This document shows, one piece after another, positions 23,080-52,708 of a DNA stretch of 64,000 nucleotides. A model generated the notes under the pieces. That model was given only the letters and a program-made list of their open reading frames with translations. It searched no databases and was not told the origin of the DNA. Numbering within the stretch: the first letter of the stretch is position 1; every line of letters starts with the position of its first letter. Both the position numbers and the translations under genes were made by a program. The stretch covers positions 232,065 to 296,064 of the forward strand of contig JBCBUK010000005.1 of the NCBI GenBank assembly GCA_039818205.1, given 5' to 3'. Source of the stretch: Verrucomicrobiota bacterium (GTDB taxonomy: Bacteria > Verrucomicrobiota > Verrucomicrobiia > Opitutales > Cerasicoccaceae).

Positions 23080-23568
23080 CTACTGAGTAAGCTCCTCTTT
23101 GACGCCACCGCAACGTAGCATCATGGAACCATAATAGGGGTTGGCAACTGTCTCATCGGCTTGTATCCAACTCCCACCTTTTCCACCAAAAGCCATTGGG
23201 CAATGAACCAGATAAAGACTTTCACCATCAGGAAGCGCTTTGCTTTTGACCATCGCAATCATGCCTTCTGACAGAGGCAAAAAGGCAGCTCGCGCCGCCT
23301 TAATATCGGTCGATTCGGCAATCGTTGTCGCCGAGGCTTTCATTTGCGCGATCGATGCACTGCCAACCGGAGCACCATTGGCCAGCTGGACGAATGCCTT
23401 GGCACCTTTCTGAGCCTTTCCTAGGTCATCCTCAGCCAAACCCGACTGCATCTGCAAATAGGGTTGAACAAGAGCTGCCGCAAACTCGGCATTGCCGGAC
23501 TCTGCGTGAAGGCCAAGGGCCGATGAGAATAAGAATATAAAAGTGAAGAGAGCGATGCGCATAATCAT
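23080..23568 (-). CDS. DUF3347-like periplasmic metal-binding protein
   Basis: Signal peptide; HCPMAFGGKGGSW...NPYYGSMMLRCG; overlaps the cusA stop. Confidence 0.8.
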   Translation of the reverse strand: MIMRIALFTFIFLFSSALGLHAESGNAEFAAALVQPYLQMQSGLAEDDLGKAQKGAKAFVQLANGAPVGSASIAQMKASATTIAESTDIKAARAAFLPLSEGMIAMVKSKALPDGESLYLVHCPMAFGGKGGSWIQADETVANPYYGSMMLRCGGVKEELTQ

Positions 23569-26500
23569 GTCGAACCTTGGTGATGTTTAAAACGTAACAT
23601 TATCTCTGCCAATCCGCAATAGAGTACTGGCACGACGAAAATCGATATCGTAGCTAGCACCATGCCACCGAACGATGGTATTGCCATCGGAACCATGATG
23701 TCTGAGCCGCGCCCAACCGACGTCAACACCGGGAGTAAGGCCAAGATCGTAGTCGCGCTGGTCATAATGGCTGGGCGAACGCGTCGCGCACCCGCCTCAA
23801 TGGTTGCCTGACGAATCGCCTCGATCGAATCTGGCTTCCGGTTCTTGAAGGTCTGCTGTAAGTAGGTGCAGACGATCACCCCGTCGTCGGTAGCGATACC
23901 AAACAACGCCAGGAAGCCCACCCAAACAGCAACGCTCAGGTTAATGGTCCCCATTTGAAATAGTGCCCGCAAATTATGTCCAAACAGATCGAAGTCCAAG
24001 AACCACGGTTGGCCATACAACCAGATAAGGATGAAGCCACCGGACCAGGCGAACGCGATACCGGTGAATACCATAAAAGTCTCGGGGATCCGTTTGAACT
24101 GTAGATACAACATCAGCCAGATTATGACCAAGGCAATGGGTAGCATCATGGCGAGCTTCTTGGCCGCTCGCACCTGGTTCTCATAATTGCCCGTGAAGAC
24201 GTAGCTAACACCGGCAGGAATCTCGAAATCTCCCGACGCCTTTTTCGCATCGAGGAAACGCTGCGCTTGCTCGACGACTTCCACTTCAGAAAACCCGGGA
24301 CGCTTATCAAAGATAACGTATCCAACCAGAAAGGTGTCTTCACTTTTGATTACTTGCGGTCCACGCACATAGTTAATTGAAGCAAGTTCACGTAGGGGCA
24401 CTTGAGTTCCGTCAGGCCCGGCAACTAAGATTTCTTTGATTGCTTCAATGGTGTCCCGCAGTTCACGCAAATATCGAACCCGAACCGAGTACCGCTCACG
24501 CCCTTCAACCGTTTGAGTGATCGGCCTACCGCCAACGGCCACCTCGATCACATCCTGTACCATCTGAATTTTGACGCCATAGCGAGCGATCGCATCGCGA
24601 TCGATTTCGATCTCGAGATAAGGCTTCCCCACAATGCGATCGGCGAGCACTGCCTCGGCCTTTACCGACGGCACCTCCTTCAAGAAACCTTCGATCTCCA
24701 GGGCAACCTTCTCAATCGTTTCGAGATCAGGGCCGTAGACTTTCAATCCCATCGGTGCCCGCATTCCACTTTGAAGCATTACGAGCCGAGCCGCGATCGG
24801 TTGCAACTTGGGGGCCGAAGTCGTACCTGGAATCGTGGCCGCGGTTACGATCTCATCCCAAATATCATCCGGACTGTTGATCTCATCACGCCATTGGCGA
24901 AACGGTCGCCCACGGTCATCCGGAACTAGCTCGCCAGAGTCATCGCGGACAAACTCATTGCGATCCGCATCGTAGCGAAATGTGAGCACTCTTCCATTCT
25001 CGTCCGTCTTAAATTCTGACTTATAACTAATGATCGTCTCGATCATCGAAATCGGCGCTGGATCAAGCGGACTGTCCACGCGGCCCAACTTACCCACTGC
25101 AAGTTCAACTTCAGGAATCGCGTTGATGGCCATATCCTGCTTGCGCAACACGTCCATGACCTCGCCAATCGATGCATGCGGCATCGTCGTTGGCATCAAC
25201 AGGAAAGACCCTTCGTCCAGATCCGGCATAAACTCTTTGCCCAACCCTGGCACCTGGTGCGCCATAAATACAAAGGGACTCGATTTCTTGATTGGCTCGG
25301 GCAACCAGCCGAAGACTTTGCCCCAACCTAGCCAAATCGAAAAACCAAAAACGACGACAAGCGCGCTAACCCCCAGGAACACGGTTTTGTATCGCAGGAT
25401 TGCCCCAAGTATCGCCGTGTAGAAGTGTAGAAAAAGATGAAAGAAACTGAGCAATCCACCAACTGCCAGGAGCACAAATAGAACATTGTGAAAGCGCTCG
25501 TCTGGTCCAAGCGGCTGCCAATCCGCCGCCAATAGAATTGAAACGTAGATCGCGACTAGAAAATTGAAGGCTATGAGAAGAGCACGCTCAATCCTACCAG
25601 GAATTTTCTCTCGGAACCAATGGAACGCGGCTGCTCCAACTAGCAGGAGCCCAAGAGCCCATGGAAACCAGGCCAAGAACGCTGGCCCAAGGATACCGAC
25701 CGCAGCCACGATCGCCCACAAGCTACGCTTCGCCCAACCCGATCGGTAGCAGCCCGCGATAAACCAGTGGGCCAACGGTGGAATGATCGTCAGCGCGACC
25801 ACAATTGAGCCAATCAAGGCGAAGGTCTTTGTGTAAGCCAAGGGTCGGAAAAGCTTCCCTTCGGCTGCCTCCATCGAAAAGACCGGCAAGAAACTAATCA
25901 CCGTCGTGAGTACGGCGGTCAACACGGCACCCGCAACTTCCGAACAAGCACGGTAAACCACATTCAGACGGTTCTCGTCCGGGGAAGCACTTTCCAGATG
26001 TCTCAGGATATTCTCAATCAACACGACGCCCATGTCGACGATGGTGCCGATAGCGATGGCGATACCAGACAACGCAACCACATTGGCATCAACGCCGAAT
26101 AGGCTCATACCAATGAAAGCAAACAGTACGGCCAACGGAAGTACCCCTGAAATCAACGAGGCGCTACGCAAGTGCAGCACCATCACCACAACAACGATAA
26201 TGGTTACCAAGATTTGTTGGCGCACGGCGTCCTCCAGGGTCCCCAGGGTCTCGTAGATCAAGCCCGTTCGATCATAGAAAGGAACAATTGCCACTTGGCT
26301 AACCGTCCCATCAGCCAGCGTTTTTTTAGGAAGCCCGGGAGAAATCTCATCGATCTTCTCCTTTACGCGTTTGATGACGGACAAGGGATTCACGCCATAG
26401 CGGGTAACCACAACGCCACCGACGGCTTCAGCACCTGCCTTATCTAATGCTCCACGGCGGAGCGCCGGCCCATAGCCAATCGTCGCGACCTGCTCCAAAG

Positions 26501-27347
26501 TAATTGGAACATTGTTCCGCTGTGTAATAACCGTTTTTCGCAGGTCATCAAGATCCTCAATAAAGCCAAGACCACGAATGACGTACTCGACACGATTGAT
26601 CTCAATGGTACGGGCCCCGACATCAAGGTTGCTCCCGCGAACGGCATCAAAAACCTCGTGCAAAGGAATGTCGTAAACCCGGAGTGCATCCGGGTCCACA
26701 TCCACTTGATACTCTTTGACGAAGCCACCCACGGACGCCACCTCGGCAACGCCGTCAACTCCCTGCAAAGCATAGCGCACATACCAATCCTGAACACTTC
26801 GCAACTCCTCTAAATCCCAGCCACCAGTTGGCTCTCCATCGGCATCCATTCCTTCCAGTGTATACCAGAACACCTGGCCCAGGGCGGTGGCATCGGGGCC
26901 GAGCTGAGGCGAAACACCTTGAGGCAGTGTTCCAGCCGGCAAACTATTGAGCTTCTCCAGAATCCGACTACGCGTCCAATAGAACTCAACGTCTTCCTTA
27001 AATATGATGTAGATCGAAGAGAACCCGAACATCGAGTAGCTGCGGATAGTCTTAACCTCCGGCAACCCAAGGAGTGCGGTTGTTAGCGGGTAAGTAATCT
27101 GATCTTCAATGTCCTGCGGCGACCGCCCCATCCATTCGGTAAAAACAATCTGCTGATTCTCACCAATATCGGGAATCGCATCGACCGGGATAGGGTCCCG
27201 CTGCAAATAGCCCACCTCCCAGTCAAACGGTGCCACCGCAACTCCCCAAAGAATCACCCCCAAGGCAAAAATCAGCACGACCAGCTTGTTCTGAAGACAA
27301 AACAAGAGGACCCAATCGACCGGACCTTTGGGCTTATCAATTGGCAT
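23565..27347 (-). CDS. cusA: CusA/CzcA heavy-metal RND permease (Cu/Ag type)
   Basis: VDAIPDIGENQQIVFTEWMGRSPQDIEDQITYPL, LGPDATALGQVFWY, EFMPDLDEG, PMAIPSFGG; likely start ATG 27347. Confidence 0.92.
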   Translation of the reverse strand: MPIDKPKGPVDWVLLFCLQNKLVVLIFALGVILWGVAVAPFDWEVGYLQRDPIPVDAIPDIGENQQIVFTEWMGRSPQDIEDQITYPLTTALLGLPEVKTIRSYSMFGFSSIYIIFKEDVEFYWTRSRILEKLNSLPAGTLPQGVSPQLGPDATALGQVFWYTLEGMDADGEPTGGWDLEELRSVQDWYVRYALQGVDGVAEVASVGGFVKEYQVDVDPDALRVYDIPLHEVFDAVRGSNLDVGARTIEINRVEYVIRGLGFIEDLDDLRKTVITQRNNVPITLEQVATIGYGPALRRGALDKAGAEAVGGVVVTRYGVNPLSVIKRVKEKIDEISPGLPKKTLADGTVSQVAIVPFYDRTGLIYETLGTLEDAVRQQILVTIIVVVVMVLHLRSASLISGVLPLAVLFAFIGMSLFGVDANVVALSGIAIAIGTIVDMGVVLIENILRHLESASPDENRLNVVYRACSEVAGAVLTAVLTTVISFLPVFSMEAAEGKLFRPLAYTKTFALIGSIVVALTIIPPLAHWFIAGCYRSGWAKRSLWAIVAAVGILGPAFLAWFPWALGLLLVGAAAFHWFREKIPGRIERALLIAFNFLVAIYVSILLAADWQPLGPDERFHNVLFVLLAVGGLLSFFHLFLHFYTAILGAILRYKTVFLGVSALVVVFGFSIWLGWGKVFGWLPEPIKKSSPFVFMAHQVPGLGKEFMPDLDEGSFLLMPTTMPHASIGEVMDVLRKQDMAINAIPEVELAVGKLGRVDSPLDPAPISMIETIISYKSEFKTDENGRVLTFRYDADRNEFVRDDSGELVPDDRGRPFRQWRDEINSPDDIWDEIVTAATIPGTTSAPKLQPIAARLVMLQSGMRAPMGLKVYGPDLETIEKVALEIEGFLKEVPSVKAEAVLADRIVGKPYLEIEIDRDAIARYGVKIQMVQDVIEVAVGGRPITQTVEGRERYSVRVRYLRELRDTIEAIKEILVAGPDGTQVPLRELASINYVRGPQVIKSEDTFLVGYVIFDKRPGFSEVEVVEQAQRFLDAKKASGDFEIPAGVSYVFTGNYENQVRAAKKLAMMLPIALVIIWLMLYLQFKRIPETFMVFTGIAFAWSGGFILIWLYGQPWFLDFDLFGHNLRALFQMGTINLSVAVWVGFLALFGIATDDGVIVCTYLQQTFKNRKPDSIEAIRQATIEAGARRVRPAIMTSATTILALLPVLTSVGRGSDIMVPMAIPSFGGMVLATISIFVVPVLYCGLAEIMLRFKHHQGST

Positions 27348-29220
27348 CTTTTGCGTCACCACCAATCGTTTCTTTGACCTCGCCGCACTTCAACATCATC
27401 GCCCCGAAGTAGGGATTCTTGAGTGGCTCAGACGCCTGCAACCAATCAGCCCCGGTATCGCCATAAACCATTGGGCAGTGCATAATGAGTAGTTCACCAG
27501 ACGATGCGGTAGGATCAGCTTTTATTGCGTTGATCATGGCTGCTGAAAGCTGATCAAAGCCCGGCTTGCGGATTGCCTCCAAGGAGTCGGCTGCCATCAT
27601 CTCGCGAATCAGCTCAGGAAGCGGACCTAAATGTCCTGTCGTTACGGCCATCGATATCAAAGCCTTCTTCGCTCCGTTCAAATCATCATTCGCGAGCATC
27701 GCCTGAAGCTTCAAATAGTCCGGGAGAAGCTTCTTTGCCATCGTTCCGGGTATGGTCAGCTGCGGTTCTCTGTCCCCCATATCCATGGGCATGTCCGCAT
27801 GATCATGACCGCGTGGCGATCCACCACCTTCCGGATTCATCATGCTGGGTTTGGCTTGAATCTGCAGCGCGCTATCGATCTTGAACGCACCGTTACTCAC
27901 CACAAATTCACCGGCCTCAAGCCCCTCCATAACCACAAACTGATCGCCAGCACGGGGTCCCAAGGTGATCTCACGCCCTTCATAGGTCGGATTCTCAGCG
28001 GTGAGATCCTGCACGTAAACCACCGAACGTTTACCCGTACGCAATACCGATGAAGCAGGAACCACCAAGGGCGGCTCGTCCGAAATTTCCTGCACGTATC
28101 CCAGCTCTTCCGCGGGGACGAGCGCCATTCCGCAAACATCACAGTCGCCTGGTCCATCTTTGATAATTTCAGGATGCATCGGGCTGATCCACTTACCTGC
28201 CAATTCCGGGGCGACGACTTGACCGCCATCGGCCATTTTTGCGGACACGATTCCCCGGGCAAACATGCCAGGCTTCAACCGGCCATCTTCATTCGGAACA
28301 TTGACGCGCACCTGAGTCGTTCGCGTCTGCCGATTGACCTCCGGATTAATAAACGCTATCCGCCCTTCAAAAGCTTCGCCTGGAAAAGCCTGAACCGTAA
28401 AGCTCACATTCTGCCCGTAGCGCAGCCAGGTCAGGTCCGATTCATAGGCATCCAGATACAGCCAGAGCACACTTAAATCCACGATCTTGAAAAGCGTCTC
28501 ACCCGTTTGAATGTAGTCCCCTTCCTTGACCTTCTTATAAACCACAACCCCGCCGATCGGCGCCCGCAATACAAACTCACTCGTTGCCTCGCCACTCTCA
28601 ACGATGGCATCGATCTGGTCGGGTAATAGATCCCAAAGGCGCAATTTCTCCTTCGCCGCTTGAGTGATGGAACTCGCGGGGTCCCGCCGATAGGCCGTTA
28701 GCAATTCGCGCTGGGCCGTTAGAAGATCTGGGCTGTAAATTTTGGCTAGGTGCTCCCCCTTTTTCACGCGAACTCCAGTGAAGTTTACGAACAGCTGATC
28801 AATGCGAGCCGGGAAACGCGCCGTTAGCGCCTTCTCTCGGGTTTCATCGTATTCGAGCTCCCCGACCAGGCGAACCGCGACTTCGGGAAAACGACGAATG
28901 ACCTCCGTGGTCTCGATTTCTGCAAGGGCCCGCGAACTTTCGCTCATGCTCATCGCTCGCGGGTTATCACTCACATGATCGTCTTGTGTCAGGGGAATGA
29001 GATCCATACCGCAGATGGGGCAATCACCCGGCTCCGTCTGACGGATCTGCGGATGCATTGAACAGGTCCAAATCGTTTCATCAGCAAAACTATCAACACT
29101 CTCGGCGGCCACCGATCCATCGGCATCGCTAGCATTCGATCCCGCCGGCATTAGGTAACGGCCCGCCATCAAGCCAAGGAGGACAGCAACTGCAGCGATG
29201 ATGATTGCTTTCTTATTCAT
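27337..29220 (-). CDS. cusB: CusB-like membrane-fusion protein with two heavy-metal-binding motifs and a C-terminal DUF3347-like domain
   Basis: WTCSMHPQI...CPICGMDL, WISPMHPEI...CDVCGMAL, RLKPGMF, HCPMVYG...NPYFGAMMLKCG; likely start ATG 29220 (MNKKAIII). Confidence 0.88.
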   Translation of the reverse strand: MNKKAIIIAAVAVLLGLMAGRYLMPAGSNASDADGSVAAESVDSFADETIWTCSMHPQIRQTEPGDCPICGMDLIPLTQDDHVSDNPRAMSMSESSRALAEIETTEVIRRFPEVAVRLVGELEYDETREKALTARFPARIDQLFVNFTGVRVKKGEHLAKIYSPDLLTAQRELLTAYRRDPASSITQAAKEKLRLWDLLPDQIDAIVESGEATSEFVLRAPIGGVVVYKKVKEGDYIQTGETLFKIVDLSVLWLYLDAYESDLTWLRYGQNVSFTVQAFPGEAFEGRIAFINPEVNRQTRTTQVRVNVPNEDGRLKPGMFARGIVSAKMADGGQVVAPELAGKWISPMHPEIIKDGPGDCDVCGMALVPAEELGYVQEISDEPPLVVPASSVLRTGKRSVVYVQDLTAENPTYEGREITLGPRAGDQFVVMEGLEAGEFVVSNGAFKIDSALQIQAKPSMMNPEGGGSPRGHDHADMPMDMGDREPQLTIPGTMAKKLLPDYLKLQAMLANDDLNGAKKALISMAVTTGHLGPLPELIREMMAADSLEAIRKPGFDQLSAAMINAIKADPTASSGELLIMHCPMVYGDTGADWLQASEPLKNPYFGAMMLKCGEVKETIGGDAKDAN

Positions 29221-30535
29221 GGTCTTGTGTGGCGTGAAAGGTTCCCAGAATCGGTTGGTTAGCAAGCGTCTGGATAATGACGCGCTGTTGCCAGGCATCG
29301 GTGGCGGCTCGCCAATAAAGCAGCTGCAGTTCCAAAAGGGAGCGTTCGCTATCGATCACCTCAAGAATTCCTGTGCGTCCATTCTCATAGCTGTAGCGGC
29401 TATTCTCAGCAGCCTGTTCGGCGAGCCCCAGCAACTCATCACCGTACAAGGCAAGTCGACGATTAGCATCATTCAATCGCGCGACCGACGCACTTAGCTC
29501 AGCCCGCAAGCGATTGGAGCGATTGTCATATTCATTTTCATTCGCCCGTTGACTGGCCAATGCTTCTGCTCGGGCCGCATCGTATTTCTTAAACCAAATC
29601 GGAATCGTGAGCGCAACGGTGAAGCCCCATGGATCTTCACCTGCATCGGGCGTGTTGGGGCTCACCTCTGGTTCGCCCGTTTGAATGTAGTTAAACCCGA
29701 GGGTGATATCCGGAAAACTTTCCAACCGGGCGATCTCGCGACGCGCTTCAGCACTTGCTACTTGTCGCTCTAACATCAGCAGCTCTGGATTGTTGGTTTC
29801 AATCGCGACTATTAGCGATGGCCCATCTACCTGGATGACTTCGGGACGATCCCAATCTGGCCACGGAAGCGTTGATTGAGCCGCCGTTGCCAACAGCTCA
29901 TTGAGTTTCGCCGACTGGGCGATTCGCTTCTGCTTAAGTGATTCCAATTGGTCTCCAATCTTCCCAACCTCAACCTTGAGACGAAGCAACGCATTCAGGT
30001 CTCCTCCTGCTTTGACCTTTTCTTCCACGACGGGTTCCAACTGCTGAAGCAGGTCCAAATTTTCTTCGGTTAACTCAATCGCATGCCCGGTGAACCCATA
30101 CTCATAGAAATTCAAGGCAACTGAACGAGCCACCATGAGTTGCTGGCTTTGAAACGCATACCAGAGTGCCTCCGCTTCGGCCGAGGCAGCATTCTCCCGG
30201 CTTCCAAGTTTGCCAAACCAAGGAATGGTTTGGCTGAGCATAAACACATTCTCTTGTGGTCCGGTTCGAGTCTGCACGGACTCAACAAAATGGGTGATCT
30301 GAAATCGTGGCTCAGGCAAGGCCGACGCCTGCGGTATCCGTTGCATCGCAGCTTCGTACCGCGCCTCAAATGCCTTAAGTTGAGGATTCGCGGCTTGAGC
30401 TTGCTCTAGGTAGCTTTGCAGATCCGTTGGGCCAGCGTCACTGGATTGAGCATGGGAGGCACAACTCAGCCCAAGGATAAGCGTGAGCGCCAGCGAACAC
30501 TTGAGTCTTTTCTGAGCGTAACTGCGAAGAACCAT
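29213..30535 (-). CDS. TolC/CusC-family outer membrane efflux protein
   Basis: Signal peptide; AANPQL...ALPEP, LSQTIPWFG, YENG...ILEVIDSER; first gene of the cusBA cluster. Confidence 0.88.
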   Translation of the reverse strand: MVLRSYAQKRLKCSLALTLILGLSCASHAQSSDAGPTDLQSYLEQAQAANPQLKAFEARYEAAMQRIPQASALPEPRFQITHFVESVQTRTGPQENVFMLSQTIPWFGKLGSRENAASAEAEALWYAFQSQQLMVARSVALNFYEYGFTGHAIELTEENLDLLQQLEPVVEEKVKAGGDLNALLRLKVEVGKIGDQLESLKQKRIAQSAKLNELLATAAQSTLPWPDWDRPEVIQVDGPSLIVAIETNNPELLMLERQVASAEARREIARLESFPDITLGFNYIQTGEPEVSPNTPDAGEDPWGFTVALTIPIWFKKYDAARAEALASQRANENEYDNRSNRLRAELSASVARLNDANRRLALYGDELLGLAEQAAENSRYSYENGRTGILEVIDSERSLLELQLLYWRAATDAWQQRVIIQTLANQPILGTFHATQDHE

Positions 30536-30630
30536 AACTTGCGTCGTTGTGTCCTAGGACACTCGATAATACCCGTAAACTCAATCCATAGTTTTCGGAT
30601 AATCGTCGAAGCGATTGGAGCCCGCTATGG

Positions 30631-33600
30631 TTACTCAGAGGTGTCGGCGGGTTTTGCTTTTTCGCTGACGTAATCCAGAACCGCTGCACCAAACGTAAAA
30701 CCACCGCCGAATGCAACCAGAGCAACACGGGCATTGCCGGGCAGATCTTCCCAGTTTTTCGAAAGGCACAATGGAATACTGCTGGATGAGGTGTTGCCGA
30801 AATTCCGGATATTCTCCCAGACCCGCTCCGGGCGACCACTCAGGCGCTTCGCCAAGGCACGACTGATACGTTGATTTGCCTGGTGAGGCACAATCACATC
30901 TAAGTCGTCCATCTCAAGTCCACTGGCAGCACACGCTTGTGTCATCGCATTGGTCATATGGCGGACCGCATCATAAAAGACGCGTTTGCCGCGCATCGCG
31001 GTCGAATCAGGGCTATCGGTCAAGGGAACATTCAAGCTCTCGCCGGACTCCCCAATACCCGAAATAAGCGGCTTGTGCAGACGCAACTCATCACTGAGCT
31101 CGGGCTCACCGGAATCGGCCGAACGCGCACTGATCAGAGTCGCGGTAGCCGCATCGCCAAATAAAAACGCCGTATCGTAATCTTCAAGATCAAGCGTCCG
31201 GGAAAGCACTTCAGTAGTCACCAACAACACATTCCCAGAGCGACCTTCCAAAAAGTCATAAGCGCATTGAAGACCGTATAGATAGCCCGAACATCCCGCG
31301 GAAATATCATAACCCGGGCAGCACTGCTCCGGAGCCAATGCATGTAAGACTCGCATGGCCAGCGAAGGCGTCCCGCGGTCAGGAGTCGTTGTCGAACAAA
31401 TTACCAGATCGATATCCTCCATGGCCACTGGCGTTTTCTCGAGCAGTTGCTCGACGGCTTCTACAGCCAAGCTGAGCGGCGTTTGTTCTGGGGAAGCCCA
31501 ATAGCGGCTCTCGATACCCGTGCGACGGACAATATCGTCGCTGGTTTTTTCTGGGAAGCGCTTGAGCAACTCTTCGTTGCTAACTTCGACGCTACCATGG
31601 GCAATGCCGATAGCGCCCAAACGAACGATTGTGTTCTCATCCGAACGAGGGCCACTTGCCAAGAGCGGTGCGGCATCGTCTGTCGAAATAATATAAGGCT
31701 TCTTCTTTTGATTCTTCGTCGAAGAACGCTCAGTCGTATTAGCCTCAGCGCATCGAATGCGCATGATTGGGTCGCCCACGCTGATTGAAACGCCTTCGTC
31801 GACCGCCAGGGCCTCAACAACACCCTCAAAAGGAGAGACCATTTCGGCGGCAGCTTTATCTGCCTCTATAATCGCGATGTCCTGGTCTACGCTGACCGTG
31901 TCGCCTTCCTTGACCAACCATTCAACAACGGTTACCGAGTCGTCAGAAGCTCCGACGCCCATCGCGGAAATCGTCTCTATATTTGAGCTTTCCACATCAT
32001 CGCTTGCCCAGCCCAGCTGTAAATCCATCAGCTCAGCTGCGGCCTCAATAATGTCGTCGACCGATGGCAAAATCTCCAGCTGGTTGGCCAGGTTGAACGG
32101 CACAAGCGCTTCGGGCCGGGTTACCCGTCGAACGCGGGCAGGCACCGATTCACCTTCAACGACACACGCACAAATTTCGGCGCCCACACCACAAAATCCA
32201 TTGTCCTCGTGAACGACAACCAAGCGCTTCGTCTTGCGAACGGAACTGCGAATCGCGTCTTCATCCCAAGGAGTGATCGAGCGCAAGTCAATGACCTCGG
32301 CGGACACCCCGAGCGCCTCTAATTGTTGAGCCGCCTCTTCGCACAGAGGGACCGTATTGGCCCAACCAACCAAGGTGACATCGTCGCCGCTACGGCATTG
32401 GTGGGCTTTTCCAATTGGCACCCAATAGTTCGCGACGTCTCCGCTCGAAGCCCGCAGCTTGGCGTTAATCAAATTCTTGGGATACAAGATGACCGTCGGA
32501 CGATTCGAAGCCAGGGCTGCGTTAACCATTCCCGCAGCATCGCGCGCGGTGGAGGGCATCACGATATCAACCCCGGGTGAATGCGCCAAAACCGACTCTA
32601 AGGTCTGCGTGTGAAAGGGCCCAGTACCCCCGCGATAACCACCGCAGGAAACCATGATCACCACTGGGCAATTCCATTGCCCGGCTGATCGCCAATACAT
32701 CGAGGCCAGTTCGTTGTGATAAAGGTTCTGAATCAGCGGAAGAAAATCAGCAAACTGAATAAACCCGACTGGCTTGCCGCCGGCCAGAGCTTGCCCAATG
32801 GTGAGCCCCATGATGCTGGCCTCTGCCAGTGGCGCGTTGCGAACCCGGTCCGGGAACGCTTCCGATAGGCCTTGGGTCACCCCAAATACATCGCCTTTGG
32901 GGTCTTCGATGTCCTCGCCCAGAAGCGTAACCGCCTCGTCCTTGCTCATCGCCTGATGCAAGGCTTCGCGCATGGCTGCACGCATCGTCACCCCAATACC
33001 GTTGGTATCGATTCGACGCCCCTCCTTGGGCTCGGTCTGGTTTACGTAGTCGGCACTGAGTGGTGCCTTGACCTCCAAGGATAAAACTGGATCAGCAGAT
33101 TGTCGGGCCTCGTCGGCCGCGGACTTCACCGCCACCCGGGCACTCTCCTCGATTTCGAGCAACTGATCGTTGTCCACACCGAGATCCAAAAGCTGCTTGC
33201 GAAATTCGATCAGTGGATCACGAAACTTAGCATTCTCGGCCAGAGTATCCGCATTGCGGTAGGCCTGCTGATCATCGGCGTTCGAATGGCTGCCCAAGCG
33301 CTCGACCCGCATCACCGCAATCGCTGGACCACGAGTCGATCGAATCTTGCTGCAGAGGTTGCCAAACTGTTCACGTGAATCGATGACATCGACGCCATCC
33401 CAATAATGAATTGGCACACCGAGGAAGCTTTCCGCCTGCCCATCCGGGAGGGAGAAAAAGGTTTGCCCTCCCGTCGTAGTCGAAAGCGCATAACCATTGT
33501 CCTGGATCAAGAACAACACAGGCAAATTCGCTCGAACCGCCTCACCGACGGCCTCATAAAAATCCCCCTGCTGCACGCCGCCATCGCCAATTGCACAATA

Positions 33601-34080
33601 GACCAGCGGAGCACCAGGATCATCTTTGATGCGAGAAGCGACGCCCACGGCAGGCAACAGATTGTTGCCCACCGAAACTGGCATACTCATGACATTCAGC
33701 GCCCGGTCCGAGTGCATCACATTCATGTGCCGCCCTGCCGAACAAGAAGCCTCGTTCGCAAACAGAGAATCAAAGAATGATCGAGGCTCGACCCCGCGAG
33801 CGAGCAAAAGAGCTCGATCGCGGTAGTGACAACCCAGCCAATCGTCCGGAGTCAGAAACTCCGCGAGGGTTGCCGTTGCCTCGTGCCCCGCACTTGCAAT
33901 GTGGAAGTGCCCCTCACCTCGAGCGATGATCTTGCGTTCCTCGGACTCGATTTCGCGTGAGCGGACAAGACAGCCATACAAATCCAGGTACCGTTCCAGT
34001 AGATCAGATCGGCACGAATCCGGGGTGGATTCCGCTAAACGGGTCATGGGTTCAACCGGTCGGTCCTTGAAGACATCCAT
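30631..34080 (-). CDS. Fusion of 2-oxoacid dehydrogenase E1alpha + E1beta + lipoyl domain + beta-ketoacyl-ACP synthase III (FabH)
   Basis: HYRDR and TPP motif GDGGVQQG...QDN; LGEDI, NAPLAEA, IQFADF, GPFHTQ; lipoyl IEADKA; FabH triad AGCSG, PHQAN, GNTSSSS and AFGGGFT. Confidence 0.92.
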   Translation of the reverse strand: MDVFKDRPVEPMTRLAESTPDSCRSDLLERYLDLYGCLVRSREIESEERKIIARGEGHFHIASAGHEATATLAEFLTPDDWLGCHYRDRALLLARGVEPRSFFDSLFANEASCSAGRHMNVMHSDRALNVMSMPVSVGNNLLPAVGVASRIKDDPGAPLVYCAIGDGGVQQGDFYEAVGEAVRANLPVLFLIQDNGYALSTTTGGQTFFSLPDGQAESFLGVPIHYWDGVDVIDSREQFGNLCSKIRSTRGPAIAVMRVERLGSHSNADDQQAYRNADTLAENAKFRDPLIEFRKQLLDLGVDNDQLLEIEESARVAVKSAADEARQSADPVLSLEVKAPLSADYVNQTEPKEGRRIDTNGIGVTMRAAMREALHQAMSKDEAVTLLGEDIEDPKGDVFGVTQGLSEAFPDRVRNAPLAEASIMGLTIGQALAGGKPVGFIQFADFLPLIQNLYHNELASMYWRSAGQWNCPVVIMVSCGGYRGGTGPFHTQTLESVLAHSPGVDIVMPSTARDAAGMVNAALASNRPTVILYPKNLINAKLRASSGDVANYWVPIGKAHQCRSGDDVTLVGWANTVPLCEEAAQQLEALGVSAEVIDLRSITPWDEDAIRSSVRKTKRLVVVHEDNGFCGVGAEICACVVEGESVPARVRRVTRPEALVPFNLANQLEILPSVDDIIEAAAELMDLQLGWASDDVESSNIETISAMGVGASDDSVTVVEWLVKEGDTVSVDQDIAIIEADKAAAEMVSPFEGVVEALAVDEGVSISVGDPIMRIRCAEANTTERSSTKNQKKKPYIISTDDAAPLLASGPRSDENTIVRLGAIGIAHGSVEVSNEELLKRFPEKTSDDIVRRTGIESRYWASPEQTPLSLAVEAVEQLLEKTPVAMEDIDLVICSTTTPDRGTPSLAMRVLHALAPEQCCPGYDISAGCSGYLYGLQCAYDFLEGRSGNVLLVTTEVLSRTLDLEDYDTAFLFGDAATATLISARSADSGEPELSDELRLHKPLISGIGESGESLNVPLTDSPDSTAMRGKRVFYDAVRHMTNAMTQACAASGLEMDDLDVIVPHQANQRISRALAKRLSGRPERVWENIRNFGNTSSSSIPLCLSKNWEDLPGNARVALVAFGGGFTFGAAVLDYVSEKAKPADTSE

Positions 34081-34084
34081 TCTA

Positions 34085-35383
34085 TCAGACGGCCTGCTTT
34101 TTATACTGCCGGAACTTTCGTTTTTGGGGACGGTGGTTATCGCGTGATTGCCTCATTGGTTTGCCATTTCGTTTTTTCCCACGAGAGGAAGATTTACCCT
34201 TTGGAGCCCGCAAACCAATCAACTTCTCTTCATGGAATTCATGATCACGATGAATGGTAATCTGGGTCTTAATCAGGCGCTCAATAGCACGAAGCTCGCC
34301 AATCTCCTCGGCCGAGCAAAATGAGAAGGCGCAACCTTCAGCACCCCCACGCGCCGTGCGGCCAATCCGATGAACGTAGGCTTCCGGATCGTTTGGTAGA
34401 TCGAAATTAATCACCAGCGTGATGTCTTTCACGTCAATACCGCGAGCAGCAACGTCCGTCGCCACCAAAACTGGTGTCTTGCCGCGGCGGAAATTCTCGA
34501 GTGCACGTTGGCGGGCACGTTGGCTCTTATCGCCGTGAATAGCCTCGGTCCGCACACCTGAACGGTCAATGTGCTTGGCCAAACGCTCGGCACCATGCTT
34601 GGTACGGCTAAAGACCAATGTCAAATTGCGCCCTTCTTTGCCCTTCTGCTCATCAATCAACGACGAGAGCAAGTCCCGCTTATTGTCTTGCTTGAGAAGG
34701 CATAGGCGGTGGTCGACGCTCTCTGCGGTGGTCTTGTCGGGGGCAATCCGAACCTCGGTTGGATTGGAAAGGATTGTACTGGCTAGCCCCTCGACCGTCG
34801 ACGAATAGGTCGCCGAAAAGAAAATCGATTGCCGTTGTTTCGGAAGCTCCTTCACAACTTTGCGAATGTCATGGATAAAGCCCATGTCCAACATGCGGTC
34901 GGCCTCATCCAACACGAAAAACTCGACGCTACCAAAGTCCAAATGCCCTTGGCCAAACAGGTCGAATAGACGGCCAGGCGTTGCAATAAGCACGTCAACC
35001 CCACGGCGAAGCGCTCTAATTTGTGGTCCTGCAGGAACGCCACCGTAAATCGCAGTGGTGCTGATGCGGGAAAATTTCCCGTATTCCCGGAAACTCTGAG
35101 CCACCTGCGCAGCCAGCTCGCGAGTCGGAGTCAGCACCAACGCGCGGAACTGGTTCGGGCTCAGACGCCCTGGATTCTCAATCATTTGATTAAGAATCGG
35201 TAGTGTAAACGCAGCAGTTTTCCCGGTTCCGGTTTGGGCCGAGCCCAACAAATCATGCCCTTCGAGCAGCGGCGGAATGGCCTGCGCCTGAATTGGCGTT
35301 GGCTCGTCGTAGGACTTTTCGGTGAGTGCTCGCTGGAGTGGATCAGCCAAGCCCAGCGCACTAAATTTTTGAATCGTTTCCAT
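34085..35383 (-). CDS. rhlE: DEAD-box RNA helicase (RhlE-like)
   Basis: PTPIQ, AQTGTGKT, PTRELA, TPGR, DEAD, SAT, ARGID, HRIGRTAR; basic C-terminal tail. Confidence 0.88.
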   Translation of the reverse strand: METIQKFSALGLADPLQRALTEKSYDEPTPIQAQAIPPLLEGHDLLGSAQTGTGKTAAFTLPILNQMIENPGRLSPNQFRALVLTPTRELAAQVAQSFREYGKFSRISTTAIYGGVPAGPQIRALRRGVDVLIATPGRLFDLFGQGHLDFGSVEFFVLDEADRMLDMGFIHDIRKVVKELPKQRQSIFFSATYSSTVEGLASTILSNPTEVRIAPDKTTAESVDHRLCLLKQDNKRDLLSSLIDEQKGKEGRNLTLVFSRTKHGAERLAKHIDRSGVRTEAIHGDKSQRARQRALENFRRGKTPVLVATDVAARGIDVKDITLVINFDLPNDPEAYVHRIGRTARGGAEGCAFSFCSAEEIGELRAIERLIKTQITIHRDHEFHEEKLIGLRAPKGKSSSRGKKRNGKPMRQSRDNHRPQKRKFRQYKKQAV

Positions 35384-39016: not shown

Positions 39017-40018
39017 ATGAAAATGCATATACTATCAAATGTATCTCGCCTATTGGCAATCGCTGCCTTGGGTTTTGCCTCCACAACGCTCCACGCAAAA
39101 GAACCCCTGAAAATCGCCTATAGCGATTGGCCAGGTTGGGTTGCCTGGGAAATTGGCATCAAGAAAGGCTGGTTCGAAGAAGCTGGCGTCGATGTCGACT
39201 TCCTTTGGTTTGACTACGTTGCATCGATGGATGCTTACGTGGCTGGCAAGGTCGACGCGGTATCAATGACCAATGGTGATGCGTTGGTCACTGGCGCCAC
39301 CGGGAAGCCATCGGTCGGCATTATTCTGAATGACTTCTCCAACGGCAATGACATGATTGTCGGCGGCCCGGGAGTTGATTCGATCAAGGACTTGAAGGGC
39401 AAGAAGGTCGGCGTTGAAGAAGGCTTTGTTTGCCACCTGCTTCTGCTCAAAGGGTTATCGGATAACGGTATGTCCGCTGACGATGTGACCATCGTCAACA
39501 CACCAACCAACGAAACGCCCCAGGTGCTTGCTTCGGGCGCTGTCGCAGCAATTGGCGCATGGCAGCCGAACTCAGGTGAAGCCTTGAAAGCGACGCCAGG
39601 CTCTTCACGCATTTATTCATCGGCTGATAGCCCAGGTATCATCTATGACTTCCTTTTCGTTTCTCCGGAGTCGTTGGAGACCCGTCGCGATGACTGGATG
39701 AAAGTGGTTGGCGTCTGGTATCGCATCGTCGACTACTTAAAGGACGAAGACAATATCGACGAAGCGCTCGAGATACTCTCATCACGCGTCAACTTGAAGC
39801 CTTCAGAGTATGAGCCGCTGTTTATTGGCACCCACATCCTCTCGCTCGATGAAGCGCTTGAGCGCTGGAAAAAAGGCGACGGCCTCGGCAGCGTCTACGG
39901 TTCTACTGACTTTGTTGATGACTTCAACGTGAAGTTTGAGGTCTATGAGGAGCCACTCAATACATCTAAGTATTTAGATCCGAGTCTGACAAAAGAATAT
40001 GCGAAGTCCGCGAAGTAG
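39017..40018 (+). CDS. ABC transporter substrate-binding protein (SsuA/TauA-like, urea-carboxylase-associated; probable guanidine-type ligand)
   Basis: Signal peptide; [33 protein letters not shown]; context with cgdAB and a carboxylase. Confidence 0.8.
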
Positions 40019-40045
40019 GGAATCGTGGTATCGTTAAAATAGGTA

Positions 40046-40083
40046 GCTTTGGCACCAAGCCGGATAAGGCTTGGTGCCAAGGC
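40046..40083 (+). other. Strong intercistronic hairpin after the binding-protein gene (mRNA stabiliser or partial terminator)
   Basis: TTGGCACCAAGCC-ggataa-GGCTTGGTGCCAA, perfect 13-bp stem, no U tract. Confidence 0.7.
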
Positions 40084-40109
40084 AAAACCACTGCTGCACT
40101 ACAACTACT

Positions 40110-41507
40110 ATGTCCAAATTCGATCCATGGTTGGCGATACGCAAACCACTGTCGCCACAGCGACAAGCACTACTCACGGTCGTTTCATTCCTACTGCCGA
40201 TCTTTGTTTGGTGCATTGTCAGCTACATACCGTGGCTCTGGCATCCGGACATGGTTGTTACAGTCTCCGCCGATCGCCATGATGTCACCACCGTCTACTC
40301 GGTTGGCGATCGATTACCACGTCACAAAGAAAGCGAAGACGACTTTGCCTTTGTCGATTTCGTCGAAGATGTTCGCGAGCGTAACGAAGAAATTCAAGCT
40401 GCCCGCGATTCTGGAGAGCCGATGGAAAGCTCCCGTCGCGCGAACAAGAAAGTTCTGCGTCACCTGGCACCGGTTGGCATTGCCGAAGGCTGGCTAACAC
40501 GGGACCAGGCCACTGATGATACGGCAATCTACACGCTTTGGGGAGAGATTGCGCGGGGTGAAAAACAACCGTCCAAAGTCCAACTCTCCCAAGAGAATTT
40601 GGCAGTCGTCCGGGACAACTGGAGTAAGGTCGGAGCGATCAGCGAAACCTACGATTCGAAGAAAATCCCGACGGAAATTCTCCTCAATTTAATTCCACAA
40701 GGCAAACCATCCAATCCCGTATTTGTACCCGCACCGCACGAGGTTGTTCAAACGGGCATTTATGATTGGACGCACCAACGCGACCCAGACAAGCCGGCGA
40801 TGTTCGAGCGCTACGGTCACTCGTTGACCATTGTCTTTAGCGGCTTCCTGCTTTCCTGCTTATTTGGCGTCCCACTCGGGATCTTAAGCGGAACCTACGA
40901 CTTTTTTGCCAAAATTGTTGAGCCCTTTACTGATTTCTTCCGCTACATGCCTGCCCCGGCATTCAGCACAATATTGGTCGCCATTTTATCGGTGTATGAC
41001 GCGCCGAAAATCGGCCTGGTTTTTCTCGGCACTTACTTCCAAATGGTGTTGGTCATTTCCAACACGACGCGAACCTTAGACCGCTCGCTTCTCGAAGCTG
41101 CCCAAACCCTGGGCGCCAAGAGCAAAGACATGATGTTCCGAGTCATCATCCCAGGCATCATGCCAAAGCTCTACAATGACCTTCGCATTTTGCTCGGCTG
41201 GGCATGGACTTGGCTCGTGATCGCAGAACTGATCGGAACCAAGTCAGGCTTGACCGAGTTCATTGAGACGCAGGGCCGTTTTCGGAATTTCGACAGTGTC
41301 TACCCAACGATCATCATCATTGGCCTAACCGGCTACGTGACCGACCAAATTCTCGCCGCCCTGCGCCCGCTTTTCTTCCCGTGGGATCCGCAGCATTCTA
41401 GTCAGAAGCTCAATGTGATCATCCGCTTTTTCAAATGGCTCACGAACTCGGAGTGCTACGTAAAGTCCGAGCAAGACACCAAAACACTAACCTCCAACGA
41501 CCAATAG
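40110..41507 (+). CDS. ABC transporter permease (SsuC/TauC-like) with a large soluble insertion
   Basis: [13 protein letters not shown] loop [25 protein letters not shown]; start moved to ATG 40110. Confidence 0.88.
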
Positions 41508-41517
41508 AAGGCTTCCC

Positions 41518-42414
41518 ATGATTGATGAATTGCAATTACCGAGCTATCGGGAACAAAGCCCAGAAGTTGCCAGCCGTTTCAAGTCCATCTATGAGCGACC
41601 CGTTAAGCTGGAGGTCAAAGGGTTAGGCCGAACCTTCAACTCGAACAAGGGTACTGTTCGTGCGCTCCACGATATCAGCTTCAACGTTCACCGCCGCGAA
41701 TTCATCTCGGTCATTGGGCCATCTGGCTGCGGTAAGTCGACCTTGATCCGTATTTTGGCAGGCCTAGATTTCCCGACATCAGGCGAGGCACTGCTCGACG
41801 GTAAAACAATCTTTGGCCCTGGTCGTGACCGCGGAATGGTTTTTCAAGGGTATACGCTTTTTCCTTGGTTAACCGTCAAGAAGAACGTGATGTTCGGTCT
41901 CGAAGTGTCTGGCAGGACAGGATCATCTGTAGAAGCGGAAGCCCGCTCCTGGATTGAGATCGTCGGCTTGGCCGGGTTTGAAAATGCCTATCCAAGCCAA
42001 CTTTCAGGGGGCATGAAACAACGCGTGGCGATCGCCCGATCCCTTGCGAATAATCCAAGCATGCTGTTCATGGACGAACCGTTTGGCGCCTTGGATGCCC
42101 AAACGCGGTGCCAGATGCAATCTTATCTCCTCCAGATTTGGCGCAACGTTGATGTCACGATCATGTTTGTGACGCACGATCTGGATGAGGCGATTTACCT
42201 TTCCGACCGCATCCTCGTGCTCAAAGCCAAGCCCGGGGAGATCAACGAGTTCATCGAAGTTCCAGTTCCCCGCCCACGCTCGGTTGACCAACTCCTTTCG
42301 CCAACCTTCCTCGCAACCAAAAAGCGTCTGGAAGAACTGATTCACCCAGAGGGAACGGAGATCAAGGAGCTCCCGGTAAAACGGTTCGTATCGGCTGACG
42401 AGGAAATTGAATGA
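41518..42414 (+). CDS. ABC transporter ATP-binding protein (SsuB/TauB-like)
   Basis: [36 protein letters not shown]. Confidence 0.95.
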
Positions 42415-49500: not shown

Positions 49501-50118
49501 GTCTACGGTATGGAAGGCCCGGGCGGGTATCAGTTTGTCGGTCGCACCCTTCAAATGTGGAACCGCTATGGAAGCGTCGATGCATTTCATGACGACAAGC
49601 CCTGGTTACTTCGGTTTTTTGACCAGATTCGGTTTTTCCCAGTTTCGGCCGATGAACTCACGCAGATCCGAAAAGACTTTCCCCAGGGCAGGTATCCGAT
49701 AAAAATTGAGCAGAGCTCCTTTGACCTCCACGAATACGAGGCGATGCTCGCCAAGAACGATGCCGATATCCAGGCGTTCAGGAGTCAACAGCGTGAGGCA
49801 TTCGATGCGGAACGTGGGCGCTGGAGCGACACGGACCAGCGTTCGGACCTGGACGAGGTAGCCGTGGATTCGACAAGCGATATCGAGCTACCTGAAGGCT
49901 CTCAGGCTATTGAGAGCTCAGTATCGGGTACGGTATACAAAGTGCTAGTTAACGAGGGTGACCACGTTCAAAAGGGCCAAACGACCCTGGTGCTCGAGTC
50001 GATGAAAATGGAAATTTCGGTATGCAGCCCTTATGCGGGCGAAGTGATGCATGTCGCCGTTGCAAATGGTGGCTTCGTCAAACCTGGCGATCGGCTTTTG
50101 GCGGTTCGCTCAGACTAA
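46528..50118 (+). CDS. Biotin-dependent guanidine carboxylase (urea carboxylase family, Asp type)
   Basis: [58 protein letters not shown]; follows cgdAB. Confidence 0.88.
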
Positions 50119-50177
50119 TCACTGCGCATAAGAAATTTGCATTGAGAAATATGTGATTCGTTTTTCAATTGAGAACA

Positions 50178-50870
50178 ATGTCTTCGTCAAAATCGAATAC
50201 TAAGAAAAATCGAAGTGAAGATATCTTTAATATCCTGCAAAGTCGGATCCTCTCCTGGGAGTATCAACCTGGGCATCGATTGAAAGAGGATGAGCTTTGC
50301 CGAGAGTTCGATGTCAGCCGAATTCCCATCCGGGAAGCTCTTAGCCGCCTCAGTCAAATCCATTTGGTGGAGCGCAAGGCCCACGTCGGCTGTTCGGTAA
50401 AGCGTTGGACACTGGAGGAAATTAATGAACTCTATGAGTTTCGTGTCGCATTGGAGACCTATGTTGTTGAGGCGCTTGCCCAGAAAGAGGATCCCATTGC
50501 CGAACTAAAAGAACTCAAAAAGGAATGGCAGGGCTACCTAACCGAAACGGATGACACCAGTTTTGCCCAAAAGAATTGGTCTACCCGGGACGAACACTTT
50601 CATGAGACGCTGGCCGCTGCACTTGGAAACCAACAGATTCTAAATTCGCTGCAAGACGTGAACTCTCGGCTTCGGTTTTTGCGCGTCCAGGACATCACGA
50701 CGCAAGAGGTTTTAACGAAAAGCAGTAAGCAGCATATCTCCATTATCAACGCGATTCGACGCAGCGACGACGAGTCCGCGAAAAAGTTGATGCGAACCAA
50801 TATTCAGATGGGTAAGGGCAACGTAAAGAGCGCTCTACAGCAAGTTCTCATGCGCTCCTATGAAGATTAG
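50178..50870 (+). CDS. GntR-family (FadR/FCD) transcriptional regulator
   Basis: PGHRLKEDELCREFDVSRIPIREAL; FCD motifs DEHFH and QHISII; start ATG 50178. Confidence 0.92.
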   Translation: MSSSKSNTKKNRSEDIFNILQSRILSWEYQPGHRLKEDELCREFDVSRIPIREALSRLSQIHLVERKAHVGCSVKRWTLEEINELYEFRVALETYVVEALAQKEDPIAELKELKKEWQGYLTETDDTSFAQKNWSTRDEHFHETLAAALGNQQILNSLQDVNSRLRFLRVQDITTQEVLTKSSKQHISIINAIRRSDDESAKKLMRTNIQMGKGNVKSALQQVLMRSYED

Positions 50871-50880
50871 AATGACCGCG

Positions 50881-52659: not shown

Positions 52660-52708
52660 TGCTGAAATCGGATTCACAAATACTTGGGAGATCTGGCTGG
52701 GAACGCAA

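Follow-up and report, generated by a model that had tools for sequence, protein, structure and literature searches.

This analysis concerns one gene on the minus strand of a 64,000-nucleotide stretch, called the window below, of the assembly GCA_039818205.1 (contig JBCBUK010000005.1, positions 232,065 to 296,064), a Verrucomicrobiota bacterium of the family Cerasicoccaceae in the order Opitutales. The gene encodes a protein, P0001, in which the alpha and beta parts of the decarboxylase of a 2-oxoacid dehydrogenase (E1), a lipoyl domain and a beta-ketoacyl-acyl carrier protein synthase III (KAS III or FabH) follow one another in a single chain. An earlier reading of the DNA from its letters alone (the sequence-only reading) had described one open reading frame (ORF) of 1149 amino acids (aa) with these four parts, which it placed at positions that correspond to residues 24-340, 364-683, 699-777 and 817-1137. 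The Pfam matches agree with these ranges and, together with the open frame, bear out the architecture. The parts and the codons of interest are the following, where the acyltransferase is abbreviated E2, acyl carrier protein ACP and coenzyme A CoA in this text.

30631..34080, minus strand: whole ORF, E1alpha-E1beta-lipoyl-KAS III fusion, a single intact frame with an ATG start, 1149 aa (P0001)
33094..33942, minus strand: E1alpha part (Pfam E1_dh, residues 47-329), 113.2 bits against a cut-off of 22
32074..32991, minus strand: E1beta part (Pfam Transket_pyr, residues 364-538, and Transketolase_C, residues 557-669)
31756..31956, minus strand: lipoyl domain (Pfam Biotin_lipoyl, residues 709-775), 61.4 bits
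31855-31857, minus strand: codon of Lys742 in EADKA, the predicted site of lipoyl modification
31627..31755, minus strand: linker between the lipoyl and FabH domains, residues 776-818, of variable length in the family and rich in Arg, Thr, Pro and Ala
30673..31626, minus strand: FabH (KAS III) domain, residues 819-1136, from the NF006829 match and the alignment with the E. coli FabH structure 1hn9
31291-31293, minus strand: codon of Cys930, which corresponds to E. coli FabH Cys112 (1hn9 alignment)
30883-30885, minus strand: codon of His1066, which corresponds to E. coli FabH His244
30793-30795, minus strand: codon of Asn1096, which corresponds to E. coli FabH Asn274
31534..31536, minus strand: codon of Asp849, which aligns with E. 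coli FabH Trp32 on one side of the sandwich around the CoA adenine
31177..31179, minus strand: codon of Tyr968, which aligns with E. coli FabH Arg151 on the opposite side of that sandwich
31369..31371, minus strand: codon of Thr904, which aligns with E. coli FabH Phe87, by which the primer pocket is closed

All six Pfam domains of the fusion protein exceed their cut-offs; Transket_pyr scores 97.7 bits against 27 and Transketolase_C 112.5 against 25.9, and the matches in the FabH part are ACP_syn_III (residues 924-989) and ACP_syn_III_C (residues 1050-1136). Base composition across the gene is unremarkable. Promoter and terminator consensus scans around it gave sites no more numerous than in shuffled sequences.

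Conservation was read from the 120 homologues listed from a homologue search, which are 46-63% identical to the window protein. Asn195 and His265 of E1alpha and Glu420 and His490 of E1beta are invariant in all of them, and Asp166 of the thiamine pyrophosphate (TPP) motif GDG...N is Asp in 117 and Glu in 3. In E1 enzymes GDG...N binds TPP, and the residues corresponding to His265, Glu420 and His490 belong to the active site. The closest solved relative of the E1alpha part is the alpha subunit of the T. thermophilus 2-oxo acid dehydrogenase, 1um9_A, with 126 bits against 78 for the next one, and those of the E1beta part are 1ik6_A and 1um9_B. Judged from its sequence, the E1 part is a TPP dependent 2-oxoacid dehydrogenase E1 of the heterotetrameric alpha/beta type, with its predicted catalytic residues intact.

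The lipoyl domain carries the EADKA motif of the sequence-only reading at residues 739-743. It is of the DKA-turn type and not of the biotin-type MKM, and Lys742, the candidate for the modified residue, is invariant in all 120 homologues. The spacing between E1beta and the lipoyl domain is constant, 33-35 residues from Pro672 to Ala706 in 120/120. The stretch between the lipoyl and FabH domains (Gly769 to Gly829) is variable, 54-100 residues with a median of 60, and its Arg, Thr, Pro and Ala rich composition in the fusion protein resembles that of flexible E2 linkers.

In agreement with the sequence-only reading, we found no E2 acyltransferase domain in the fusion protein; there is neither a Pfam match to 2-oxoacid_dh (PF00198) nor a DHRxxDG-like motif. 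The protein reached no NCBIfam equivalog for pyruvate dehydrogenase (PDH) or E2, and the PDH models stayed far under their cut-offs. The window itself holds no gene for E2 or for dihydrolipoyl dehydrogenase (E3), again as first noted. The genome comprises 4.85 Mb in 66 contigs, and its two E2 catalytic domains (contigs C18 and C10) and four Pyr_redox_dim proteins (contigs C10, C1 and C2; one is part of the 2-oxoglutarate dehydrogenase, OGDH, operon) are all located on contigs other than that of the window, C5.

The FabH part passes NF006829, a model for a subfamily of beta-ketoacyl-ACP synthase 3 (256.9 against a cut-off of 249), and misses TIGR00747 fabH (225.9 against 292.1). The Cys-His-Asn triad is intact, as had been read from the letters: Cys930, His1066 and Asn1096 align with Cys112, His244 and Asn274 of E. 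coli FabH. These three residues and Arg1071, the equivalent of E. coli Arg249 and presumably an ACP-docking residue, are invariant in all 120 listed homologues. According to a paper on the structure of Yersinia pestis FabH (PMC4606726), Trp32 and Arg151 flank the adenine ring in the CoA complexes of E. coli FabH, Thr28 takes part in a hydrogen bond, and the pantetheine is held by Arg36, Asn209 and Asn246. The position of Trp32 is occupied in the 120 fusions by Asp (97), Glu (13), Lys (9) or His (1), and that of Arg151 by Phe (85), Tyr (22), Leu (8), Pro (4) or Val (1), so that neither Trp nor Arg is found at its position in any of them (0/120 each). As a control we used the best stand-alone FabH of each fusion-bearing genome (n=26, from 25 survey genomes and the genome of the window), and both residues are kept in 26/26. 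Among 68 lipoyl-bearing cluster representatives, Trp is present in 2 and Arg in 3, and the two together in none. The fused FabH has lost the CoA-adenine pair, yet it retains the triad and the ACP-docking Arg, and this holds family-wide.

In the FabH tree all fused domains group together (support 100), and the stem that leads to them is very long, with 2.89 changes per column. Thr is found at the position of Phe87 in 93% of the 120 fusions, and Phe in 25 of the 26 stand-alone FabHs; 8vd9, the closest solved relative of the fused domain, has Phe here. Phe87 is described as blocking the channel of E. coli FabH and limiting the enzyme to acetyl-CoA, and Thr in the M. tuberculosis enzyme as opening a larger cavity, in the available part of PMC12625853. 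Thr904 is thus only a hint of a larger primer pocket in the fused enzyme. In brief, the fused domain shares with canonical FabH (1hn9 and the fabH product of its own genome) the fold family, the residues corresponding to Cys112, His244, Asn274 and Arg249, and the GGG oxyanion loop. It differs in the exchanges Trp32 to Asp, Arg151 to Tyr and Phe87 to Thr, in belonging to a separate long-branch clade and in sharing a chain with its putative acyl donor.

The same six Pfam domains are present in each of the 120 listed homologues. Their source names include Cerasicoccus arenae (63% identity), Ruficoccus, Puniceicoccales, Opitutales, several groups of Planctomycetes and a metagenome-assembled genome (MAG) of Spirochaetaceae. 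In a survey of the phylum with 301 sampled genomes we found the full-length fusion in one piece in 26 genomes and as two contig-end pieces in 2 more, approximately 28/301 in total. The gene is family-wide in this survey, with 9/9 genomes of family f24, 6/6 of f39, 5/5 of f27, and 2/2 of f1 plus G000. All four parts are present in 38 of the best 150 representatives of a search with the lipoyl-FabH half as query (50%-identity clusters). Fused forms of more than 2011 aa were not found in the search, which is weak evidence. A search of the genome contigs with the fusion protein alone returned two distant E1 loci only.

The sequence-only reading had pointed out that the fusion could be a sequencing artefact. 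A Logan contig of run X1 spans positions 30000-35000 of the window in one piece with zero differences; X1 may be the source sample, so this contig is not independent. X1 is also the sole run listed for this stretch, and no RNA data set was among the holders. The architecture recurs in all 120 listed homologues, which come from many assemblies, and an artefact is therefore excluded. With the intact frame, the invariant catalytic residues of these homologues and the 26 genomes with the gene in one piece (two contig-end pieces in 2 more), the idea of an assembly or frameshift artefact, or of a decaying gene, has a negligible probability and is refuted for practical purposes. The fusion is a real gene, and the window protein belongs to a large uncharacterised family of E1alpha-beta-lipoyl-KAS III proteins, with its E1 and FabH parts both placed inside the clades of the fusions.

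A second type of fusion was found in approximately 37 of the 301 genomes; these belong to families of the window genome's order. These genomes have an ORF of 1012-1140 aa that matches only residues ~30-690/790 of the query, with 35-40% identity. The example at locus L056 is a protein of 1018 aa with E1_dh, Transket_pyr, Transketolase_C, Biotin_lipoyl (residues 704-776) and 2-oxoacid_dh (residues 814-1016) by Pfam, that is, with an E2 catalytic domain (E2cat) at its end.

L056:1447-4500, plus strand: E1alpha-E1beta-lipoyl-E2cat gene; ten further loci are L095-L104

The proteins of the ten fetched loci align with the L056 protein end to end (10/10), and ETDKA and DH(R/K)xxNG are present in 11/11 examined E2cat fusions. 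They are ~1010-1130 aa long and lack a subunit-binding domain, and their homologues carry the source names Coraliomargarita sinensis, other Coraliomargarita, Lentimonas and Opitutales MAGs. When the window protein and its relatives are aligned with L056, the match stops at approximately residue 780, where the lipoyl domain ends. The two fusion types have the same domain order, a comparable spacer, sister E1 parts and no subunit-binding domain, and they part only in the final domain, which is either an E2 acyltransferase or a ketosynthase; the product of the Opitutales proteins that end in 2-oxoacid_dh with DH(R/K)xxNG would be acyl-CoA. Because relatives from the same order carry E1alpha-beta-lipoyl-E2cat in one chain, the FabH domain occupies the exact position of E2cat. 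None of the 301 genomes has both types, and this mutual exclusion is a clade pattern and not a series of independent events. The E2cat fusion is in effect a one-protein E1 plus E2, of which we found no description.

In a further genome (L055), a fused E1alpha-beta (722 aa, 40% identical to the query E1) precedes an E2 of the usual kind, encoded separately and made up of a lipoyl, a subunit-binding and a catalytic part. We calculated a maximum likelihood tree of the E1 region (quick search, 48 rows) with lipoyl-less E1alpha-beta proteins as outgroup; the long-branch row L026 makes its deeper part unreliable. The E1s of the FabH fusions form one clade with an SH-aLRT value of 99. Those of the E2 fusions form another (100), which joins L055 (94), and the FabH-fusion clade is sister to E2 fusions plus L055 (95).

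Branched primers for fatty acid synthesis are in the textbook route made by the branched-chain 2-oxoacid dehydrogenase (BCKDH) complex, consisting of E1alpha/E1beta, E2 and E3, and are handed as acyl-CoA to FabH. The fusion protein resembles this route in its heterotetramer-type TPP dependent E1, a lipoyl-lysine as acyl acceptor and a Cys-His-Asn KAS III that would work with malonyl-ACP. It differs in that the E2 core and the domain for binding peripheral subunits (PSBD) are absent, all parts are on one chain, Trp32 and Arg151 are gone, and acyl-CoA is apparently skipped. We suggest that the ORF probably encodes a functional protein, from a family where the E2 core of a 2-oxoacid dehydrogenase has given way to a ketosynthase, and that it would carry out a priming cycle free of CoA.

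In brief, the E1alpha-beta part would decarboxylate a 2-oxoacid with TPP and reductively acylate the lipoyl group on Lys742, as its intact catalytic residues suggest. The flexible linker of ~40 residues would let the S-acyl-dihydrolipoyl arm reach the FabH domain, where Cys930 would take the acyl group by thioester exchange; in this key step acyl-CoA would be bypassed. The acyl-enzyme would then condense with malonyl-ACP to 3-ketoacyl-ACP via His1066 and Asn1096, in line with the invariant triad and the ACP-docking Arg, and the product would enter type II fatty acid synthesis or the synthesis of a related lipid. A dihydrolipoyl dehydrogenase encoded elsewhere in the genome would finally reoxidise the arm with NAD+. 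We infer all of these chemical steps from the protein sequences, the transfer from the lipoyl arm to Cys930 above all. The sequence-only reading had proposed that FabH sits in the place of E2cat and may receive the acyl group directly from the lipoyl arm, with no need for CoA, and this proposal gains support from the E2cat sister fusions, the sister clades of E1, the loss of Trp32 and Arg151 and a two-gene form with a lipoyl-FabH protein.

The two-gene form was found at locus L110. The lipoyl-FabH protein P0205 has 442 aa; it and P0273, a member of its cluster with the same length, are found on 8 and 7 contigs, respectively. The lipoyl-FabH gene sits where the E2 gene sits in L055.

L110:2662-5969, plus strand: two-gene form, a gene for a 661-aa fused E1alpha-beta whose TGA stop overlaps the TTG start of the lipoyl-FabH gene (P0205)

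A longer form is P0155 (1942 aa, on a contig of 63.6 kb), in which the complete fusion is followed by a ketoreductase (KR, residues 1337-1518) and a phosphopantetheine-binding domain (residues 1625-1683), with about 250 more residues without a Pfam match. This is the only KR-ACP form among the best 150 representatives. By its domains, P0155 is a polyketide synthase (PKS)-like megasynthase with a predicted loading module for keto acids, and its layout would fit a FabH domain whose 3-ketoacyl product is formed on a carrier protein. Proteins of 769-852 aa with the apparent order E1beta-lipoyl-FabH were considered as a split form and rejected; P0147 (769 aa) is in one 90% cluster with a member of 1134 aa.

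The layout of P0155 also bears on the possibility that the FabH-like domain is itself an acyltransferase, which hands the acyl group of the lipoyl arm on to holo-ACP (or, in the manner of E2, to CoA), and that another ketosynthase makes the first condensation. Exchanging one acyltransferase for another is functionally the simplest swap, KAS III-like acyltransferases exist and FabH has a weak transacylase side activity. However, the KR and ACP that come right after FabH in P0155 are expected for a 3-keto product, and His1066 and Asn1096, assigned to malonyl decarboxylation by the alignment with E. coli FabH, are invariant in 120/120. The residues of the GGG loop, F1124 and G1125-G1127, are invariant in 58 aligned sequences, and the domain passes the ketosynthase model NF006829. 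We regard an acyltransferase as improbable.

We put it at slightly better than an even chance that the ketosynthase Cys serves the lipoyl arm as an acyl acceptor of a third kind, and that CoA independent, oxidative-decarboxylative starts of fatty acid or polyketide chains directly from 2-oxoacids occur widely among Verrucomicrobiota, Planctomycetota, Spirochaetota and others, carried out by one chain, by a module of two genes or by a loading module joined to KR-ACP.

The genome of the window encodes a classical set of 2-oxoacid dehydrogenases next to the fusion. PDH E1alpha (TIGR03182, 419.1 against a cut-off of 393.85) and E1beta are encoded on contig C3, a PDH-type E2 slightly below its cut-off (TIGR01349, 431.1 against 445) on C18, and the OGDH operon with E3 on C10. 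The genome search gave no aceE and no E2 for a branched-chain complex, and besides PDH and OGDH the fusion is the sole further 2-oxoacid decarboxylase of its class in the genome. The gene for LipA (371.8 against 310.25) adjoins a LipB/LplA-type gene, and the canonical fabH adjoins plsX.

The presence of a canonical FabH in 26/26 fusion-bearing genomes would agree with the same chemistry serving a specialised lipid or polyketide starter and not bulk membrane fatty acids. So would the PKS-like P0155 with its KR and ACP and the strong divergence of the fused FabH (stem of 2.89). Against this, the gene is present throughout whole families of the survey (9/9, 6/6, 5/5, and 2/2 plus G000, as given above), its neighbours are of a housekeeping kind with no biosynthetic cluster in the window or at eight other loci, and the KR-ACP form is a single one among the best 150 representatives. 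Because the neighbours of eight family members are unrelated and mutually different, the fusion gene behaves as a solitary gene of housekeeping type; an LplA/B-type gene is near one of the eight only. We hold a restriction to specialised products to be unlikely.

For the proposed CoA-free priming we lean towards a substrate of greater size than pyruvate, for example 2-oxobutyrate or a 2-oxoacid with a branched chain, because the genome already has PDH and a canonical FabH and because Thr replaces Phe87. The solved relatives of E1 span both classes, the T. thermophilus branched-chain E1 and archaeal and Bacillus PDH E1. Coraliomargarita is reported to contain 10-23% iso-C14:0 and 2-11% anteiso-C15:0 in the accessible text of PMC10288369, and the sister clade of E1 consists of the E2 fusions of this genus with iso and anteiso fatty acids. 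Kiritimatiella glycovorans, in which iso-C14:0 is described as a major fatty acid, is by source name the host of P0394, a protein of the family with 1113 aa that shares 46% identity with the query. The genome encoding P0394 also has an aceE-type PDH and a second set of E1alpha-beta, E2 and E3. As two classical E1/E2 sets coexist there, the fusion is not the sole possible source of isobutyryl groups in that genome. The sequence-only reading had the acyl groups channelled into (branched) fatty acid or polyketide initiation; its idea of a direct lipoyl-to-FabH transfer is supported, and its 'branched' may or may not apply, with chemotaxonomic hints pointing both ways.

In the genome of P0394 we also noted an E2 gene at L120:3549-4900 on the plus strand, between a gene for a fused E1alpha-beta (762 aa) and an E3 gene. 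The ORF list shows this E2 as two ORFs (lipoyl, 172 aa, and catalytic, 222 aa), whereas the genome search shows one frame of 448 aa. The discrepancy may be due to an unusual start codon or a frame problem.

Several observations weigh against CoA-free priming by the fusion protein. Pfam gave no E3_binding (PSBD) match in it at E <= 0.001 that would account for reoxidation of the arm. Five of the 68 lipoyl-bearing representatives retain one of the two adenine-binding residues, and losing Trp32 and Arg151 is in itself no proof that acyl-CoA is unusable. Since each of the 26 fusion-bearing genomes examined also has a canonical FabH, the fusion is not required for initiation as such. Around eight family members no conserved neighbour, such as an ACP, E3 or lipoyl ligase gene, was found. 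P0205 is a distant relative, 33% identical to the corresponding half of the query and with an E1 of 28% identity, and its FabH has Tyr at position 32 and Arg at position 151; the two-gene form of L110 may be an independent invention and may still bind CoA. Some of the E1beta-lipoyl-FabH forms, which begin at the boundary of E1beta, are probably artefacts of gene calling. The homologues that are closest among the named ones come from Cerasicoccaceae, a family described in PMC10288369 as having predominantly the straight-chain fatty acids C14:0 and C18:1w9c. This profile does not favour a large flux into branched primers. Such family summaries are weak evidence, because in its accessible part the same paper describes Coraliomargarita alike and yet measures 10-23% iso-C14:0 there.

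In an alternative that stays close to the textbook, the fused FabH uses free acyl-CoA, a separate E2 such as that of PDH serves the E1-lipoyl part in trans, and the fusion merely brings the two ends of the known pathway close to each other. The genome does have two E2 proteins and the CoA dependent canonical pathway, and the 5/68 representatives that keep Arg151 or Trp32 point the same way. Arg36 is kept in 82/120 and the Asn of HQAN in 58/58 aligned sequences, both among the pantetheine contacts given in the part of PMC4606726 available. However, residues that contact pantetheine are needed just as much for malonyl-ACP. The Trp/Arg pair is found in 0/120 fusions against 26/26 stand-alone FabHs from genomes that carry the fusion, a covalent link joins the lipoyl domain to FabH and to no E2, and sister genomes have the E2 catalytic domain itself at that position. 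We consider a service by E2 in trans quite unlikely, and favour direct priming from the lipoyl arm.

Among known systems, those of the quinocarcin type load a two-carbon unit from a TPP/lipoyl system onto a carrier protein without CoA, by means of an E2-like acyltransferase. The acceptor in that loading is an ACP; in the fusion it would be the cysteine of a ketosynthase. OdhA of Actinobacteria (PMC10415282) is a two-in-one fusion of E2 and E1o and thus, like the protein described here, has a decarboxylase and an acyl-transfer step on one polypeptide, but it retains an E2-type succinyltransferase that makes succinyl-CoA and is without a ketosynthase. OdhA is not known to have a lipoyl domain of its own. 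Pseudomonas putida has alternative starts of fatty acid synthesis through a malonyl-ACP decarboxylase and FabB, according to the portion of PMC10869286 available. These are also alternative entries into the type II system, but in that portion they begin from malonyl-ACP or acetyl-CoA, without a 2-oxoacid, TPP or a lipoyl arm.

The sequence-only reading had called for a check of prior descriptions. A full-text literature search gave no published account of the fusion in the open full text that it covers, with subscription journals and supplements outside its coverage. PMC8204192, which combines FabH with lipoyl terms, does not mention the fusion in its accessible part.

If the proposed cycle is true, two textbook statements would change: the lipoyl arm of 2-oxoacid dehydrogenases would not be limited to CoA via E2, and initiation of the FabH type would be possible without an acyl-CoA primer. 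It would explain how keto acids derived from amino acids enter lipids without a free acyl-CoA pool in many bacteria of the Planctomycetes-Verrucomicrobia-Chlamydiae (PVC) group and others. Engineers would also gain a compact module, a single protein, to make branched or odd-chain fatty acids, or polyketide starters, from keto acids. The comparative series of E1alpha-beta with a separate E2, E1alpha-beta-lipoyl-E2cat, E1alpha-beta-lipoyl-FabH and the latter with KR-ACP traces a clear path of evolution, and the same four forms are at once controls for experiments.

Upstream of the fusion gene, a gene for a DEAD-box helicase (34081-35383, minus strand) ends 4 bases before its ATG, and the two may be co-transcribed; eight other family members lack this pairing. 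Downstream, at a distance of 95 bases, there is a metal efflux operon of the Cus type (23565-30535, minus strand), which is probably unrelated. It encodes an outer-membrane factor, a membrane-fusion protein with two heavy-metal-binding domains and a 1266-aa pump of the AcrB family. Elsewhere in the window, at 46528-56311, paralogous urea carboxylase genes (1196 aa, plus strand, and 1200 aa, minus strand) flank an allophanate hydrolase gene (615 aa), and at 39017-42414 there are genes for an NMT1-type binding protein and an ABC transporter.

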